Source of the DNA: Eledone cirrhosa | Taxonomy: Eukaryota | Length of the DNA stretch: 64,000 bases | Reading direction: 5' to 3' | NCBI GenBank assembly: GCA_964016885.1 | Contig: OZ024740.1 | Location: 224,378,001-224,442,000 of the forward strand | Part shown: positions 2,768 through 39,283 of the stretch, one piece after another | Position numbering within the stretch: the stretch's first letter is position 1 | Layout of the letters: the number at the start of each line of letters is the position of its first letter | The notes under the pieces: generated by a model | What the model was told of the DNA's origin: nothing | Seen by the model: the letters and a program-made list of their open reading frames with translations, nothing else | The model's database searches: none | Translations under genes and position numbers: made by a program

Positions 2768-5437
2768 CTATTGGGGTGATAACCCGTTTAGTTTTGGTTT
2801 AAATTTGTTAAGGAATAGATTTTCTTTGTTTATTCTTTGTTGCTGTGTGAACGAATCTGAGCACTTGTAGAAGGGGAAGATTTTAAAGTTGGGTAGTGTC
2901 ATTCCTGCGCAGTTCGCAATATGGCTGCTCAAGGGGATTTTTCTTGTGTTAGCGTCCCGGATTTGTTGGCGGTGGATGGTCATTCTTTTGCGTAATGAGG
3001 TGCCCGTCTGTCCTATGTAGTTGTGTTTGCACCCACCGCAAGTTATTGCGTAAATCAAGTTCTCCGAGTTGCAGGTGAAATTGTTTTTTACTGTAAATGT
3101 TTGGCCATCTTTGAATGTAAATGTTTGTCCTTCAGTGAGGTAGAGGCACGTTCCACAGTTTGTTCTACCACATTTGGTAACTGTAGGGTTGAGGATTGGT
3201 TTGGGTATATTTGGTCCAGTGAGAATGCGTTTAAGTGATTTGGGTTGTCTTTTACTTTTAAGGATCTTGTGTGTTTCAAGAATAGACTTCATTTTTACAT
3301 CTTTAAGTAGGATGGGGAGGTTTTTGTGTAGGTAATCAAACATTTCGGTATTTCTGGGGTTGAAAGTGGATACATATGGCAGGGTGTTTAGTGTGGTTTT
3401 CTGTTTTGGATTGTTAAGTTGATGGGGATTTAGGTGTTTTGCCCTGTCTATTCCATTGTTGATTATTTCAAGTGGAAAGGCTCTTAAGATAAGGGTGTCT
3501 TTTAGTTCCTTTAGTCTTTGCTCCCGTTTAGGTGGATCTGATACTATGGTACATATACGTTTGGCCAAATTGTAAGGAATGTTAAGTTTTGTATGTTTTG
3601 GGTGACTTGATGTAAAAAAGAGGTATTGCTTGGAATCTGTGGGTTTATAGAATATATCTGTATCTAATTTCCCGTCTATTACAGAGATGAGAATATCCAA
3701 GAAGGCTAATTCCTTAGGATTGGATTCCATTGTGAATTGTATGTTATTATCTATGTTGTTTATCATGTTTTTAAACGTAGTAAGTGAGTTCATGTCTTCT
3801 TGCCATAGGATAAAGCAGTCGTCTAGATATCTTTTCCAATTGGCTTTGAGGTGTGTGTGGAAAGAGTCTCCAAATAAGAGAAGAGACTGACTGTATATTT
3901 GTTGTTCATGGAATCCCATGACTAGGTTGGCATATGTGGGTGCTACTTTCGTGCCCATTGCCGTACCTGATACTTGTCTGTATGTTGAACCATTGAATGT
4001 GAAGTAGTTATTTTGTAGGATAAAGCGGAGTCCGTCAGTGATAAAATCTGTGTTGATGCGTGTCGGTATTTCTGATGGGTGTGTGTTAAGCCAGTATTGG
4101 ACTGCTGTTATTCCATAGTTGTGAGGTATGTTTGTGTAGAGGTTTATTACGTCAAAGGAGACAAGAATTGTATTTGCACTTACTGTTTTAGGGAGGTGTT
4201 TCAGCATGTCAAGGTCATCTCGTATGTAGCTCTGTATATGTTGTAGAAAGGGTTTCAGTAGGATGTCCAGAAAGTTGCTAAGTCTGTAGGTTTCACATGT
4301 AGGGCCTGCTATAATTGGCCTGAGTTTTAGGTCTTCTGGTGGTGTTAGTTCAATGTAATTGTTGGTTGAGGTGTCACATGCATCGTTTATGGGTTTACAT
4401 TTGTGGAGTTTCGGTAAGCCGTAAAAAGAGCTTGTATTGCATTTGAAGTGGCTTATATAGTTAAACTCTTTTGTGGTTAAGCTGTTGCGGTATTTATTCA
4501 GTAAGGTCAAAAGGTTCCCCATTGTTTTGGTGTGTTTGTAGTTTTCTGTTTTTTCATAGTATGTGTTGTTTTCTAAAATGTTAAGTGCGAGGGTCCTATA
4601 GTAGTCCGTATTCATAATGACAACAGTACTGCCTTTATCGGCTTCTTTGATAGTTATCTCAGGGTTGTTTCTAAGTGTGAATAATTCTTCCCATTCGTGT
4701 GTAGATAGGTTTGATTTCGTGTGTTTATTTGTAATTTTTTCATAGGGAAAGTTGGTGATGTGTTCGCAGTACGTGTCCAGTGCTTTATTTCTTCCCTTTT
4801 GTGGGCAGAAATTGCTTTTATTTCTAACCAGTGATTCGTCTTCAGTGTTGGTGTCGTTGTGGAAGAATTCCGTTAGTCGCAGCTTTCGGCAGTATTCCAT
4901 GATGTCATCCTTCATTTCGGGGAAGTTTGGTTTACGTGGTGTAGGTGTAAATTTCAGGCCCTTACTTAAAATGTTGATTTGTGTGTTGGTTAGAGGTGTC
5001 TTTGAGAGGTTGATTATTTTTGGTTTCTCCTGAGGGGGGGGGGGGGGGGGGCATCGAGTATCCTGGTATTTCAGGCTTTTCCCTAAAAAAGGAATGTAGT
5101 TTTGTGTGTGATTATATTTTGTTGGTCTGTTGCGTGTGGGTCTGTAGCTTGTTGTTTCATGAGGGTGAATGTGATGGTGGGGGTGGTATGTGTTGTGGTT
5201 GTTGATGAGCAAGGGTTCTGTTGTTGGTTCATGTGGTCTGGGTGCGTTATTTCTGTGGTACAGAGTGTTGAGGTTGGGGGGTTGTCTTTTGTTGGATTGA
5301 GGGTGATGTCTGGTGTGGTTGTGGGTAAGTTCTGTTGTGATTTCAAGTGGTCTGGGTGGATTTCTTCTGAGGAATGTGGTGTGTGTGTTTTGTGTTGTAT
5401 TAATCAACATTTGAAAAGATGGCTTTTGCAGACCCAT
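2768..5437 (-). CDS. Penelope-like reverse transcriptase + GIY-YIG endonuclease (889 aa, uninterrupted)
   Basis: RT motifs YGLPKLHK, LRPIIA, VSFDVINLYTNIP, GTAMGTKVAPTYANL, RYLDD; Cys linker CGRTNCGTC; GIY-YIG NLIYAITCGGCKHNYIGQT. The first ~13 codons come from the inverted pseudo-LTR, so the true start is uncertain. Confidence 0.95.
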   Translation of the reverse strand: MGLQKPSFQMLINTTQNTHTTFLRRNPPRPLEITTELTHNHTRHHPQSNKRQPPNLNTLYHRNNAPRPHEPTTEPLLINNHNTYHPHHHIHPHETTSYRPTRNRPTKYNHTQNYIPFLGKSLKYQDTRCPPPPPPQEKPKIINLSKTPLTNTQINILSKGLKFTPTPRKPNFPEMKDDIMEYCRKLRLTEFFHNDTNTEDESLVRNKSNFCPQKGRNKALDTYCEHITNFPYEKITNKHTKSNLSTHEWEELFTLRNNPEITIKEADKGSTVVIMNTDYYRTLALNILENNTYYEKTENYKHTKTMGNLLTLLNKYRNSLTTKEFNYISHFKCNTSSFYGLPKLHKCKPINDACDTSTNNYIELTPPEDLKLRPIIAGPTCETYRLSNFLDILLKPFLQHIQSYIRDDLDMLKHLPKTVSANTILVSFDVINLYTNIPHNYGITAVQYWLNTHPSEIPTRINTDFITDGLRFILQNNYFTFNGSTYRQVSGTAMGTKVAPTYANLVMGFHEQQIYSQSLLLFGDSFHTHLKANWKRYLDDCFILWQEDMNSLTTFKNMINNIDNNIQFTMESNPKELAFLDILISVIDGKLDTDIFYKPTDSKQYLFFTSSHPKHTKLNIPYNLAKRICTIVSDPPKREQRLKELKDTLILRAFPLEIINNGIDRAKHLNPHQLNNPKQKTTLNTLPYVSTFNPRNTEMFDYLHKNLPILLKDVKMKSILETHKILKSKRQPKSLKRILTGPNIPKPILNPTVTKCGRTNCGTCLYLTEGQTFTFKDGQTFTVKNNFTCNSENLIYAITCGGCKHNYIGQTGTSLRKRMTIHRQQIRDANTRKIPLSSHIANCAGMTLPNFKIFPFYKCSDSFTQQQRINKENLFLNKFKPKLNGLSPQ

Positions 5438-5558
5438 CGAAACCGGTCATTTTTTATACCCTTTATTATTTCCTTACCTTATAAAATTATGTTTTTTCAC
5501 AAAAAAGTATTCTTTCTCTTATATATTCCATGTGCCATTACCAACCTCAATTTTCTCT
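5398..5558 (+). repeat. Inverted 5' pseudo-LTR copy with hammerhead-variant motif (5406-5453)
   Basis: TTGAAAA(5411-5417) GATGG/CCATC GAAA(5439-5442) CCGG TC; inverted relative to 1512-1673. Confidence 0.8.
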
Positions 5559-6344: not shown

Positions 6345-7225
6345 TATATTAAACCCATGTTATCTGCTAAAGCAAGGTTTAGCCACACAGGGTCTCATGA
6401 AAAGCTTCACCACTTTTCCTTTTCCTTTACATCACCACTCAACCACTCAATGGCGTTAATTTGCTCTTCCATCATCTTTACCCATGACTTGGTTTTCCCC
6501 TTTTCTCTACTTCCTTTCATATTCATTTCCATCATTCTTCTCACCCAGCAACTTTCATCCTACCTCAAAGCATTTCCTGACTATCCCATTCCATTTCTCT
6601 TCACAACATTCATCACTGGTTCTGTTCCCATTCTTCCTCTGACCTACTCACCTTTATCCTTCCTCAACACATGATCTAACCATCTCATTCCATTTCTCTT
6701 CACAACATTCATCACTGGATCTATTCCCATCACTCTGCTCACCCAGTCACTTTCATCCTTCCTCAACACATGACCTAACCATCTCATTCCATTTCTCTTC
6801 ACAACATTCATCACTGGATCTATTCCCATCACTCTGCTCACCCAGTCACTTTCATCCTTCCTCAACACATGATCTAACCATCTCATTCCATTTCTCTACA
6901 CAACATTCATCACTGGTTCTATTCCCATCACTCTGCTCACCCAGTCACTTTCATCCTTCCTCAACACATGACCTAACCATCTCATTCCATTTCTCTTCAC
7001 AACATTCATCACTGGTTCTATTCCCATCACTCTGCTCACCTAGTCACTTTCATCCTTCCTCAACACATGACCTAACCATCTCATTCCATTTCTCTTCACA
7101 ACATTCATCACTGGGTCTATCCCATCACTCCGCTCACCCAGGCACTTTTATCTTTCCTCTACACATGACCCAACCATCTCATTCCGTTTCTCTTCCCAAC
7201 ATTCATCACTGGCTCTATTCCCCTC
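6345..7225 (-). repeat. RTE LINE 3' remnant with a 99-bp tandem array (~6-7 units)
   Basis: CCATCTCATTCC recurs at 6680, 6779, 6878, 6977, 7076 and 7174. The unit translates (-) to VMGIDPVMNVVKRNGMRWLGHVLRKDESDWVSR, the RTE C-terminal RWxGHVxR motif. Confidence 0.85.
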
Positions 7226-34479: not shown

Positions 34480-36020
34480 GGGGTAGGAGGTCCATCATTA
34501 TGTCTATTGATTGTTCGTGTCCTGTAAAAGATTGTCAAAATAGTAACCAAAGCATGCATACTTCTATCTGGAGACGGAGTCCGAAATCTCTTTCGTCGTT
34601 CCTCGTCTGTTTGTTGGAGTCGTTCGTATTCGTCTAGAATGGAAGCGAGGTTATCATCTGAAGATGAGCTGTCCTCATTTATTAGATTGCTAAAACAATG
34701 TACATAAAAGAGAATATTCCAGATAAAAGGATTAAGCTTTTTTTTTACGTATTTTAGAAATGGAGAGCATGTTGTGAAAACGTATTCTGTGTATCGTGTG
34801 ATGAAAGCAATTTTTTCTGAGAGTGGTGCGTTCTGGTCGAACTTGTTGTTGCTGGTAATTATGAGTGGCATCCTATGAACTATTTGGTCTTGTTTAAACT
34901 TAATAGCTACCTCCGTATCAATTCCCTCAACGAGTTTCTTGAATGTCTGCAGTGTCTCTAAAGTGAAGTTTGGTTTTCTATCAGACCTATTTCAACATTG
35001 ATCAGATTTTGAAATGGGAAGCTGCTTGTACCCTGTATTGTTGATACGTGAGTGAACATATCAGCAATACTTCTGGCCACCATAGACTTTCCTGTGTTTG
35101 GTATTCCTCTTAGTACGAGTAAATTTCGTTTTGGCTTTTTGGGGGTTAGCAGCTTCCATACTGTAGTGACAAAGCTTGCTTCTTGTAAATCTTGTGTCAT
35201 AATAATTGATTTTAATATTTTTAGCGATACATCCCTGTCCATGTAGTTCTTATTGTTGTCAAAGAACTCCCAGTTCATATTTTCGAACTTTTCTTTAAAA
35301 CATATTCAGGGTTTTCAGTTTCTCGCATTCTAAAACATTTTTCATAATGCTATCGTGCATAGGATGTGATATGGCTCTCATGAAATTATCGTTGTTTGTT
35401 CGATGTAGCCAATGAGATTTCATGTCTTGTTCGCTTCGGAACTTTTTTGATGTGAATATGTACGTGAGGTAGTTAAAAAGCGTTAGAGTAGTACCCAATT
35501 TTGACTTAAAAGTCGGTTCTTCCTGTGTGCTCGTTTGTTGTCTGCTAGTAGATTGTTTCGGTTGTGCGCCAGTCTGAAAATGTTTCGTTTGTGTCGTCTA
35601 TTCCTTGGATGAGTACATAACGAGGAGGTTGGCAGAAGTAGTTCGCCATGCTGGAAGGAAATTTTATTCTCTGACATTCTGGTATGTATCATACTAATTT
35701 TGTGGCCTTTTTGTATAAGCTTCTTATATATTTCAGACGTTGATTCTCTCCTGGTCTCTGCATACTATGCCATATAATATGAAAGTGGTTAAAGGCATTC
35801 CACTCTTTTTTTGGCGCATAAAGTGTTGTTTTTTGGGTGATATATTACTGTGGCTCCCTCACAGTGAATGAACTCTTTTATCTTATAGTTGCTGCTTATC
35901 TGGTACACATTTTTTCTGCTCTCATCATTATATTCGTTTATATTTAATTCGAAATGTTTGATTGGACCTTCTCCATGTACAGCTTGTGGCCGGCGCTCTG
36001 AAATGGAAAATGGTTACATT
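34480..36020 (-). pseudogene. NS1: Parvoviral NS1/Rep (HUH endonuclease + SF3 helicase), frameshifted
   Basis: HUH motif NHFHIIW (35773-35787); KRNLLVLRGIPNTGKS Walker A (~35084-35107); IGLIE Walker B; after a frameshift, TFKKLVEGIDTEVAIK (B') and MPLIITSNN (motif C); C-terminal KKLNPFIW. Confidence 0.93.
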
Positions 36021-36074
36021 GTAATACTACTTTAACGATGTGCTTGTCGAGTTCGATCCACTCTCGTTATTTCG

Positions 36075-36258
36075 GCGGTGGATTGGCAGTATTGGTAGAG
36101 GGTCGGACGCCATGCTTTCCAGCATAGTTACGTCCCTTTATGATCTGAGTTCAAATCCCGCCGAGGTTGACTTTGCCTTTCATCCTTACGGGGTCGATAA
36201 AATAAAGTACCAGTAATGCACTGGGTGATTGCTGGCCTGGTGCCTTAAGTAGAAACAA
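36075..36258 (+). mobile_element. SINE family A inserted in the 3' end of the viral VP gene
   Basis: Full-length copy flanked by TSD TTATTTCG (36067-36074 and 36259-36266). Confidence 0.9.
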
Positions 36259-37572
36259 TTATTTCGTAATTACGTAAACCTTGTGGCCATTTACATAAGT
36301 CAGTTTTTGCTGAATTCATTATTGTTGCATTAGCTGTACCCCAAGCCATCCAACCCATTGTTTGAGGATTACCAGATATGTATTCGAAATCTACCTCTGA
36401 GTAATATGTAATCGTTATCATAAATGATATTTTTGATGGGTTATTTTGTGAATCTAATATTGGTACTGAGTCTAATGTTGCTATTAGTGGTGGATTTGAT
36501 GGATTTACAGGAAATTGTGTTAGATGTGATCTACCCGTATTTTCTTCTTCATCAGTTTTATCTACTGCTAAATCCTTACTCCATGTACCGTCTTTTGTTG
36601 GTGCCCATTGTGATTTTTTAGCCCCCGAATATGTATTTATTTCACAAGGTAAACCGTTAGTTAATTTGATAGTTGGTGGTTCGAAAGTAGTGTTGAATGC
36701 GTAATACCCCATAAGCGAAAACCAACTAGGTGTTCTATTTATCCATGTGTATTGTGCTGTATCACCAGCGTATAAGAATTGGAAGTCGCCCGTGTTTAGA
36801 TATGATAGTATTTCTTCTACTGGCATTTCTTGTTCTGTAGCTGTTGCAGTTTTTGTATCTTGCCATATCTCTTCTAATTAGTCTATTGCTTTCTATTCCT
36901 TCTAATTTCCCTTCTTCTCTTGTAAGTGGTAGGTTATGTGTCCAGTTATTATTTAAATGAGCTATATTCCAGGTTTGATTTGGGAATAATGCTATTTATT
37001 ATCTACGTAATGTATCATCCATGGTCTAGTGTTGAATGTAGTGTTTGTTGTAGTAGTGTTTTGTAATGTACCCAATTCGTCTGTTAGTGGTATTATGTTC
37101 GATATTTTGTAACCGCATGATTTTACTCTGAAATTGCTTGCTGGTGTTAAGTATGTTTCTAATTCTGCTATTGTCAGACTTGCTTTTAATTGTGTAAGAA
37201 ATTAAAGCTGCTCTATGTGCTAATCTTAATTGTATATATTCTGCGTCGTGTTTTTTGTAATATGCTTTGTCTACTGGATTATCGGAACAATTTATGTAAT
37301 GTATGAATGTTCTTGAGAATTTTTTAGAGACTATTGGATTTATATCCCCTATTACTGGTGGTTGATCCCCTTGTGCTAATGCTGCTGACCCTCCTGGTGA
37401 TGGTCCTACGTGTGGATCCCCCATTGCTGGTGTTTTTACTATCCCACTTTCTTGTGATGTTGCTGCGTTTACTAGATCTTGGTCAGATATTTCGCAACTG
37501 TCTTGGTTTTTATGTGATTGTTCTTGTTCTATTTTTCTTTTTTTTTTTCAGTCGGTGGCATTACAATTTGTT

Positions 37573-37807
37573 GGCATACCTCAAGACGGGCGGTCTCAAA
37601 AGTGAAACTAATTTTTGACAGTTACGTAAGTGATTACTTTCAATTTGGATTGTGAACTTGCTTGTTTTTTTTACAACAGGTCTCTATAGTGATATGGTGT
37701 TAATTAGTATTGCGTGTACTTGATTTTTTTTTTTTTTTCTTTTTTTGTGTATTGTGTGTACGGAAATTTTTTTTTAAAATAATGACATTGTGTGTTGAAA
37801 TAAATAA

Positions 37808-37850
<43 letters not shown>

Positions 37851-38669
37851 TACAAATTCATACAAATGTGTATGTGTGCATAAATATATATATACATACA
37901 CATATATATATATATATACACATACACATATATATACACACAAACACACATATATATACACACAAACACACATATATATACACACACAAACACATATATA
38001 CACACAAACATATATATACGTCTAAACCCATGCTTGCGTGGAAGATAGACGTTAAACGATGATGATGACACAAACACATATATATATACAAACACACATA
38101 TCATCATCATCATCATCAACGTTTAACGTCCGTGTTCCACGCTTGCATGGGTTTGGACGGGGGTAGTCCCACTTGAGGCAAGAGTGATTGTCTTGCTCGC
38201 ATAGGACTGTCTGGCAGGTTTTCTACAGTTGGATGCCCTTCCTAACACCAACCACATTTACAGTGTGGGTCTGGGAGGTTTTTACCGTGTTGCCTACACG
38301 GCCACATTACAGCATGGACTGTGTGTTTTTTTTGTCGTGACACCTACACGATCTCATTTGTTTCGGCCTCGATGGCGCGGCACCAACATAACTTTACATA
38401 GAACGGGGTGGTGTGGATGGGGTGGGGGTGGTGGTGGTGGGACGCGGTGTATTTTGTTAGAGATGCCTACTGGCTGGAGTAGGTTTTACTATATATATAT
38501 ATACATACACACACACATATATATACACACATATACACACCCACACATATATATATATTAAGAAATCCATACAATTGCGTGTGTCTGCATTATACTTTCA
38601 CTATTGAGACCTGTTGTAAAAAAAAAAAAATTAGTCTCACTTTTGAGACCGCCCGTCTTGACGTATGGC
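37573..38669. mobile_element. Non-autonomous Mutator-like DNA transposon inserted in the viral VP gene
   Basis: TIR GGCATACCTCAAGACGGGCGGTCTCAAAAGTGAAACTAATTTTT vs revcomp GCCATACGTCAAGACGGGCGGTCTCAAAAGTGAGACTAATTTTT, extending inward (TTTTACAACAGGTCTC); 9-bp TSD CAATTTGTT (37564-37572 and 38670-38678). Confidence 0.85.
38100..38475 (-). mobile_element. Short 5'-truncated RTE copy nested in the Mutator-like element
   Basis: Nearly identical to 13795-14167 (3' UTR and tail). Confidence 0.9.
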
Positions 38670-39045
38670 CAATTTGTTTTCCTCTTATAATATTCCTTAC
38701 TAAGAACGCCGATACTCCGCTACTTTTTTTACTTCACTCAATTAGTTTGTTGTCAGCTTCATCTATAGTTATATCTGTTCTGTCATAGTCTAAATCGTGT
38801 ATTCTGCAGCAGTTGTCTAATTCATTAATAGGTTTGTTGTTGTAATTGTTTGTGTATGGTCCACAGTAATTATAATATGGTAAATGTAAAGGTATGACTT
38901 ACCGAGAGTCCTGCCAACATTGTTGCATCTCTTAGTTTCAAATCGTCGTAGCTCATTCTGAATGTCTTATTGAGTAGTAGCGAAGTATCGCCGTTCTTCT
39001 TTTGGCGTGTATTTCTGTTGTGGTAACTTTAAATGCGCGCCTTGA

Positions 39046-39120
39046 TATTTATACTTTTTTTTATGCTGACTATGCTTTTAATTTTGCCTACGTGTTCGTA
39101 TTTGAATTATTGTGATTGGA
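39046..39120 (-). promoter_or_regulatory. Putative viral promoter (CCAAT + TATA)
   Basis: Minus strand CCAAT (39115-39119) and TATAAATA (39046-39053) lie between the hairpin and the first ATG (~38956). Confidence 0.55.
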
Positions 39121-39144: not shown

Positions 39145-39283
39145 CCTTTTGGAAAGGGAGACAAGCCGAGAGGGAGGGAGGAGGGGGGTTACATTACAGA
39201 GTTAAGGCTCTTCACGTTTGCCTTTCCGCTAAATACCTAGAATTCCTCCACCTCCCTCCAGGCTTGTCTCCCTTTCCAAAAGG
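39145..39283. repeat. Parvovirus-like terminal hairpin
   Basis: Perfect 23-bp arms CCTTTTGGAAAGGGAGACAAGCC / GGCTTGTCTCCCTTTCCAAAAGG, extended ~16 bp imperfectly; GC-rich in an AT-rich context, at the edge of the viral sequence. Confidence 0.75.

Follow-up and report, generated by a model that had tools for sequence, protein, structure and literature searches.

A capsid gene that probably lies inside an intron of the replication gene in parvovirus-like elements of Eledone cirrhosa

The window considered here is a stretch of 64,000 nucleotides (nt) from the octopus Eledone cirrhosa (assembly GCA_964016885.1, contig OZ024740.1, positions 224,378,001 to 224,442,000 of the forward strand). Its minus strand carries a parvovirus-like element of ~4.7 kb, from 39283 to ~34561, in which a left hairpin and a TATA-like box are followed by the capsid gene (VP) and then by the replication gene (NS1). 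The order of VP before NS1 on one strand is found in the window and in every copy that carries both genes. The whole capsid gene very probably lies within an NS1 intron, so that the RNA from one left-end promoter would yield NS1 if spliced and the capsid if left unspliced. This splice switch, proposed for exactly the same GT and AG in a preliminary description of the stretch, is supported by the conservation of the sites across copies, and contigs matching a sister copy skip the same stretch. The principal features of the element are given below.

39145..39283, minus strand: left terminal hairpin, with 33-nt arms at 39251-39283 and 39145-39177
39046..39053, minus strand: TATA-like box, the putative single promoter
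38903..38956, minus strand: coding part of exon 1, ATG plus 17 codons, predicted NS1 N-terminus, phase 0
38897..38902, minus strand: splice donor GTAAGT, whose homologous site is used in contigs of runs X9, X10 and X18 on copy L027
36032..38895, minus strand: VP gene with a PLA2 domain at its start and its stop at 36034-36032; start codon lost, with stops, frameshifts and two insertions
35998..38902, minus strand: predicted intron holding the entire VP gene, 2905 nt with the two insertions (1618 nt in L027)
35998..36020, minus strand: branch-point-like sequence, pyrimidine tract and acceptor CAG
34561..35997, minus strand: NS1 exon 2, with HUH-type nuclease motifs and an SF3 helicase; 3′ end cut off

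Across the copies, the element has the parvoviral features of an NS1 with an SF3 helicase, a VP1 with PLA2 and terminal hairpins at both ends; the NS-left and VP-right order of parvoviruses is absent. It is placed as parvovirus-like, in no subfamily. The Pfam family Parvo_NS1 is matched with 34.7 bits by the window copy and 58.4 bits by L027 (cut-off 20), and PLA2 (PF08398) with 51.5 bits by L027 and 50.4 bits by L038 (cut-off 23.9). The best PDB matches of NS1 are AAV Rep and parvoviral NS1, and the HFH motif and one Tyr are invariant in 8 rows. A structural model of NS1 aligns with RepB (Z 5.7, root-mean-square deviation (rmsd) 3.8, 107 residues aligned) and with the origin-binding domain of adeno-associated virus 2 (AAV2; Z 5.5, rmsd 4.5, 124 aligned), both below Z 8, and a Foldseek search with the full model (mean predicted local distance difference test score 54) gave no match at E <= 0.001. 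The best solved-structure match of the L027 VP by sequence is the capsid of Penaeus monodon metallodensovirus (PmMDV; 6wh3, E 5.2e-08 over 57 residues), and a local sequence match joins VP to the SsChPV capsid 9nek (E 0.0017). An NS1 tree of 18 rows, made by a quick method without reference parvoviruses, was not used for placement.

The family is known here from integrated copies and contigs only. Two DNA searches of the 3.0-Gb genome gave 29 and 32 element matches, and 27 longer genomic stretches around the copies (labels of the form L0xx) were retrieved for comparison. Named relatives of the NS1 protein come from Octopus vulgaris and O. bimaculoides only (2 of 10 matches), and no exogenous relative with DNA was found among the viral contigs and metagenome contigs searched. 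An NS1 protein 40% identical (P0004) and a VP protein 37% identical (P0012) are each from a 4017-nt ENA contig and possibly belong to one free relative. Hairpins like the left one of the window are present in L030, L031 and L025, and a short right-end hairpin, spotted by eye, lies downstream of AATAAA in L038 and L031. The unusual gene order could have been an artefact of concatemers; this was ruled out by the hairpins, which stand before VP and after NS1, with none between the genes. A TATA-like motif occurs at the matching place in most aligned copies.

The window copy itself is dead. The VP1 start is lost (at 38895-38893, as the preliminary description had seen), two insertions interrupt VP, stops and frameshifts are present in both genes and the right end is gone; neither protein can be made intact from this copy. 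The structure of the transcription unit is instead legible from the natural variation among the many diverged copies per genome, which brings out the splice sites, a hidden exon of 18 codons and an RNA helix.

On the donor side, 14 aligned copies were compared, with near-identical ones counted once. In the window, an ATG at 38956-38954 precedes the donor GT by exactly 18 codons; exon 1 had been described as having no intact ATG, and this ATG lies in a frame other than the one then considered. The length from this ATG to the donor is 54 nt in all 14 copies, the ATG is kept in 13 of them, and its context has A at −3 in 13/13. The frame of the ATG is open in 14/14 copies, with a ratio of nonsynonymous to synonymous differences (pN/pS) of 0.36, for comparison with 0.28 in VP1 and with 0.78 and 1.06 in the other two frames of exon 1. 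Judged from these ratios, exon 1 is under purifying selection. The donor GT is kept in 12/14 copies and RAGT at +3 to +6 in 14/14. The GT at 38902-38901 is indeed that of a GTAAGT, and the two elements scanned for GTRAGT (window 39283-34561 and L027) contain this motif once each in the sense direction. The VP1 ATG follows at intron position +8 or +11 (12/14 copies), out of frame with exon 1, and the unspliced open reading frame (ORF) of exon 1 ends after 28-29 codons in 14/14, overlapping the VP1 AUG out of frame. At window 38880-38902, the donor's first four bases are paired by RNAalifold with letters ~17 nt downstream, leaving the VP1 start looped; this segment is nearly invariant and thus uninformative.

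On the acceptor side, the AG at 35999-35998 does follow a pyrimidine tract, and its CAG is kept in 16/16 aligned rows (13 distinct; four near-identical). It had been placed just after the VP stop, and the order is correct; the true stop is at 36034-36032, behind a short interspersed element (SINE) that interrupts the VP 3′ end. The spacing from VP stop to AG is 33, 34, 38 or 39 nt in the 16 rows, and the spacer appears non-coding because these lengths fall in all three frames. When phase 0 is read behind CAG, every row shows the conserved N-terminal region of NS1. Together, the conserved GT donor, YAG acceptor and pyrimidine tract are those of a U2-type spliceosomal intron. The alignment of copies therefore bears out the pair of sites first proposed, with an open exon 1, in a phase other than the one proposed. 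The join had been drawn in phase 1, in a frame that is open in only 8/14 copies and has the pN/pS of 1.06; the true phase is 0. The apparent fit in phase 1 arose because of a 46-nt deletion near 35975, private to the window copy: the window matches conserved NS1 for eight codons after CAG and then enters this deletion, which is absent from the 15 other aligned rows. Further frameshifts and one stop follow in its exon 2. An ATG at 36019-36017 followed by TAA, offered earlier as an alternative, decayed NS1 start, is present in the window; it was rejected as a start, since it occurs in only 7/16 rows and TAA comes next in all 7.

Assembled sequences point to the removal of the intron. Eight of 18 matched sequencing runs were aligned to L027, a sister copy free of the insertions of the window. 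Contigs of X18, X9 and X10 join L027 position 2972 to 4591, skipping 1618 nt with CT..AC ends, which are GT..AG in the sense direction. Position 4591 is the computed end of exon 1 (the homologue of window 38903) and 2972 is the homologue of window 35997, and the joint had been predicted from conservation before the runs were aligned. It occurs in 3 of the 8 runs, from two studies and under two organism labels. The X9 contig of 1336 nt has 30 nt from exon 1 and 1274 nt from NS1, the latter ~82% alike to L027; its source is therefore a different copy, recorded under a different organism label. The X18 joint contig is identical to L027. The intron is retained in X15 (1381 million contig letters, taken as DNA by size), whose contigs run straight through both sites, with none at the joint. 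Unspliced contigs also occur in X9 and X18, and X6 and X7 hold one unspliced contig each, of ~3.5 kb. A search for the junction had been suggested earlier; the joint is present in contigs of X9, X10 and X18 and absent from those of X1, X6, X7 and X13, in each case on the sister copy L027.

Several points weigh against the splice switch. The four runs without the joint are RNA by guess, as are X9 and X10, and the kind of X18 is not on record. The joint is known from contigs, not reads, and on L027, not on the window copy. Its short side of 29-30 letters is below the 31-letter bridging bar of the tool, and for X10 the letters between the ends are given as "not known". The short overhangs and the guessed run kinds weaken the contrast between the spliced contigs and X15. 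Transcripts of endogenous copies may also be unlike those of a virus. From such weaknesses follows the explanation that faulty assembly or a DNA copy with a deletion produced the joint, with the GT/AG match due to chance. This is hardly credible: the joint is base-exact in two studies and in sequences both ~82% alike and identical to L027, it is absent from X15 and was predicted beforehand, and no intronless copy occurs among the exon-1 matches in the retrieved loci, 42/42 of which run into the intron (overlapping loci counted separately).

The protein models touch the same question from another side. An alignment of the exon-2 model with NS1 of minute virus of mice (MVM; 3wrn) begins at residue 22 of the latter (Z 3.7, rmsd 4.7, 122 aligned; a weak match), and the segment left over at the N-terminus roughly equals exon 1 in size. 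AAV2 Rep is without such a segment, being aligned from residue 1-2, and the exon-2 part alone covers the AAV2 nuclease domain from there, a point against the splice switch. A Met at codon 8 of exon 2, kept in 16/16 rows, is a possible additional internal start and speaks in the same direction. The NS1 called by the gene caller (P0001) starts within exon 2, and similar viruses may be mis-annotated because gene callers begin NS1 there. The called NS1 P0004 begins after the first strand, as expected from a spliced start.

A second, distant parvovirus-like lineage with VP before NS on one strand is present at L038:5961-9407 (minus), L068:2912-6291 (plus), L070, L069, L025:8683-9705 and L039:6099-7015. 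Its NS has its own ATG, and TATAAAT stands ~30 nt before the VP stop in 4/7 aligned rows, with TA-rich variants in 2 more; this is perhaps an internal promoter, although conserved codons overlap it. The aligned rows of this lineage show neither a conserved donor nor a conserved acceptor. The lineage seems to solve NS expression differently, which makes it a natural comparison. Its NS1 has a predicted helix (residues 3-15) of similar length to exon 1, contiguous before the first strand, and both this helix and the weak MVM alignment agree with exon 1 being a genuine part of NS1. The L038 and L025 arrays also mix lineages, and at L073:2760-4659 (plus) an NS gene of an apparent third lineage lies directly behind a first-family 5′ end.

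By analogy with the second lineage, NS1 of the first family could be expressed chiefly from a promoter within the 3′ end of VP, starting at the codon-8 Met, with splicing minor or host-side. The invariance of that Met would fit, as would the unspliced contigs, which cross the acceptor. In the NS1 model, however, the first predicted strand (residues 5-13) has the codon-8 Met at its centre, and no TATAAA stands at the corresponding place in the first family. An internal promoter also fails to account for the purifying selection acting on exon 1, for a GT fixed in phase 0, for a CAG that never varies among the rows and for the exact GT..AG joint, and is very improbable.

If the splice switch operates, the single left-end promoter would produce one RNA. 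The spliced form would have an open leader, and its first AUG, in good context, would give the 18 codons continuous with NS1. On the unspliced form, the same AUG would open only the short upstream ORF. The PLA2-bearing VP1 would then be a minor product of leaky scanning, and the major capsid protein would start at the second conserved VP AUG, reached by bypass of a looped-out region or by reinitiation. Such a region can be drawn between the leader and the intron.

38976..38998, minus strand: 5′ arm of the predicted helix, in the 5′ leader of exon 1
38702..38724, minus strand: 3′ arm of the predicted helix, within the intron and the VP1-unique coding region
37559..37561, minus strand: second conserved VP ATG, the putative major capsid start

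A scan for inverted repeats matched 18-21 nt of the 5′ leader to the VP1-unique region, and RNAalifold recovered the same helix unprompted. The predicted helix has 23 pairs; 90.3% of 310 cells are paired, and 12/23 pairs have changes on both sides, among which G-U-type pairs are frequent. Its covariation is 0.328, against 0.171 +/- 0.018 in shuffles (0/500) and at most 0.107 in slid controls; relatedness among the copies is not corrected for by these controls, and the same sequences served to derive the structure. The duplex energies range from -23.7 to -40.0 kcal/mol, with a mean of -34.4 for own partners against -24.6 for others. The own partner of the leader is the best or tied best in 8/14 copies. 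L095, a fifteenth copy unused in defining the helix, has the pairing at the same offset with different letters (-22.6). The leader arm is without a comparable partner in NS1 or the remaining VP in the four copies tested, and Rfam gave no match in L041 and L075.

The 3′ arm lies ~180-200 nt into the intron, so the helix is possible on unspliced RNA only. Its loop takes in the AUG of exon 1, the donor and the AUG of VP1; in uninterrupted copies the helix ends 30-34 nt before the second VP AUG. Upstream of this AUG there are 3-10 AUGs, of which 0-6 are past the stop of the upstream ORF. No AUG lies 5′ of the helix 5′ arm in 14/14 leaders, counted from the putative start site (L040 has one at the first base of the arm). 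Directly after the 3′ arm, an AG at window 38700-38701 is followed by a stop triplet in 9/14 copies. A minor acceptor there may place a short ORF in the leader, ahead of the second VP AUG, or the letters are perhaps just VP1 codons; none of the 13 joints listed for some of the runs on L027 uses this AG.

Three roles of the helix have to be weighed. The foremost candidate, itself put forward with some doubt, is a shunt, in which ribosomes would bypass the looped-out region and reach the second VP AUG. A shunt of the type of the Caulimoviridae, as outlined in the available passages of PMC3542737, likewise has a large stem-loop around several AUGs and a start codon just 3′ of its base. Unlike in the caulimovirus shunt, the 3′ arm of the element belongs both to the intron and to coding sequence, and the structure would be lost on splicing. 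In the shunt, too, a short ORF ends just 5′ of the stem (same passages), and the element is without one. This difference counts against the bypass, as do three further points: the pair counts are biased towards a structure drawn from these very sequences, the own partner is not the best in 6/14 copies, and the second VP AUG is a putative start of the major capsid protein.

The second role, somewhat unlikely, leaves the splice switch as proposed and has the helix tune splicing by keeping the donor in a loop, with the second VP AUG reached by reinitiation. The donor is indeed enclosed and may be restrained, X9 and X18 hold spliced and unspliced contigs together, and the upstream ORF of 28-29 codons in 14/14 copies is at the limit of "less than 30 codons" stated for reinitiation in a passage of PMC3542737. 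Reinitiation would nevertheless have to deal with the 0-6 further AUGs between the stop of this ORF and the second VP AUG, and tuning does not need the fixed spacing of 30-34 nt after the 3′ arm. Tuning and the shunt are not mutually exclusive; the shunt ranks before tuning, and other roles taken together stand level with the latter. Among these, a fold of the single-stranded DNA genome in packaging or replication, with no role in RNA, would be served equally by the complementarity. It is improbable, given the frequent G-U-type pairs among the changes and arms that straddle exactly the start codons and the donor.

Should the bypass be real, the splicing state would be coupled to the choice of start codon through the leader-intron helix. 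The helix is in any case a testable example of RNA folding that would be confined to the state before splicing and may decide which start codon is used. Put together, the elements would represent an undescribed octopus lineage with an inverted plan, in which a helix erased by splicing shunts ribosomes past the NS1 start on unspliced RNA only; this composite is offered tentatively, with less confidence than the splice switch. The preliminary description was partly supported: its outline was right, the phase, the exon-1 peptide and the alternative start were wrong, and the helix and the second VP start had been missed.

Similar arrangements are known from other viruses. In retroviruses, unspliced RNA serves gag and spliced RNA serves env; structural genes lie in an intron, and a short leader exon is joined to the downstream gene. 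These viruses are unrelated to the element, whose spliced product would be a replication initiator that includes exon 1. Among marine invertebrate hosts, PmMDV (Metallovirinae) resembles the element in its VP sequence and is reportedly subject to extensive splicing. The main risk to novelty lies with this virus, which was compared by its description in a review. In the passages of that review considered here (PMC11357303), PmMDV is called unique in its genome organisation and its transcription strategy and is said to be without PLA2, which the VP of the element has; for all parvoviruses, NS is placed there in the left part of the genome and VP in the right.

A further close likeness is to the single-promoter parvoviruses. 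According to the consulted parts of PMC12298888, Bocaparvovirus (MVC, the minute virus of canines, and HBoV1, human bocavirus 1), Erythroparvovirus B19 and Amdoparvovirus have one left-end promoter, a pre-mRNA sorted by splicing to NS and VP, and a VP1 with PLA2; their unspliced RNA gives NS, and VP is reached through processing. The element is the mirror image. In those viruses, NS occupies the left half and unspliced RNA encodes the largest NS; here, VP comes first, unspliced RNA would encode the capsid and NS1 would require removal of the whole VP gene. A capsid-first lineage that has to excise its capsid gene to make the replication protein reverses the usual early/late logic and indicates that NS and VP cassettes can swap order. 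No report of a VP-first or capsid-in-intron parvovirus, or of one from octopus, was found in the open literature (subscription journals and supplements being outside this scope). The passages seen of PMC5013282, PMC11357303, PMC13426907, PMC12298888, PMC12115719 and PMC3542737 contain no such layout, and "octopus" occurs 0 times in the text seen of PMC5013282, whose supplements, possibly listing such sequences, lie outside the search.

The remaining features of the window concern its later history. Two host insertions interrupt VP.

37573..38670, no strand assigned: host insertion in VP, flanked by an 8-nt target duplication and bounded by terminal inverted repeats of ~40 nt; SINE and microsatellite content
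36075..36258, no strand assigned: host SINE-like repeat, flanked by a target duplication, near the end of VP on its 3′ side

The first sits between the helix and the second VP ATG of the window copy. It is non-autonomous, with terminal inverted repeats beginning GGC, and is putatively Merlin-like. Elsewhere in the genome, copies L027, L028, L029 and L030 are near-identical, lie on at least three chromosome-sized contigs and are arrayed both in tandem and in inverted order; this suggests that they were integrated or amplified recently. Outside the element, the window holds an open frame of 892 codons at 2768-5446 (minus), presumably a Penelope-type reverse transcriptase with endonuclease, and a tandem array with a period of 99 nt at 6426-7217.

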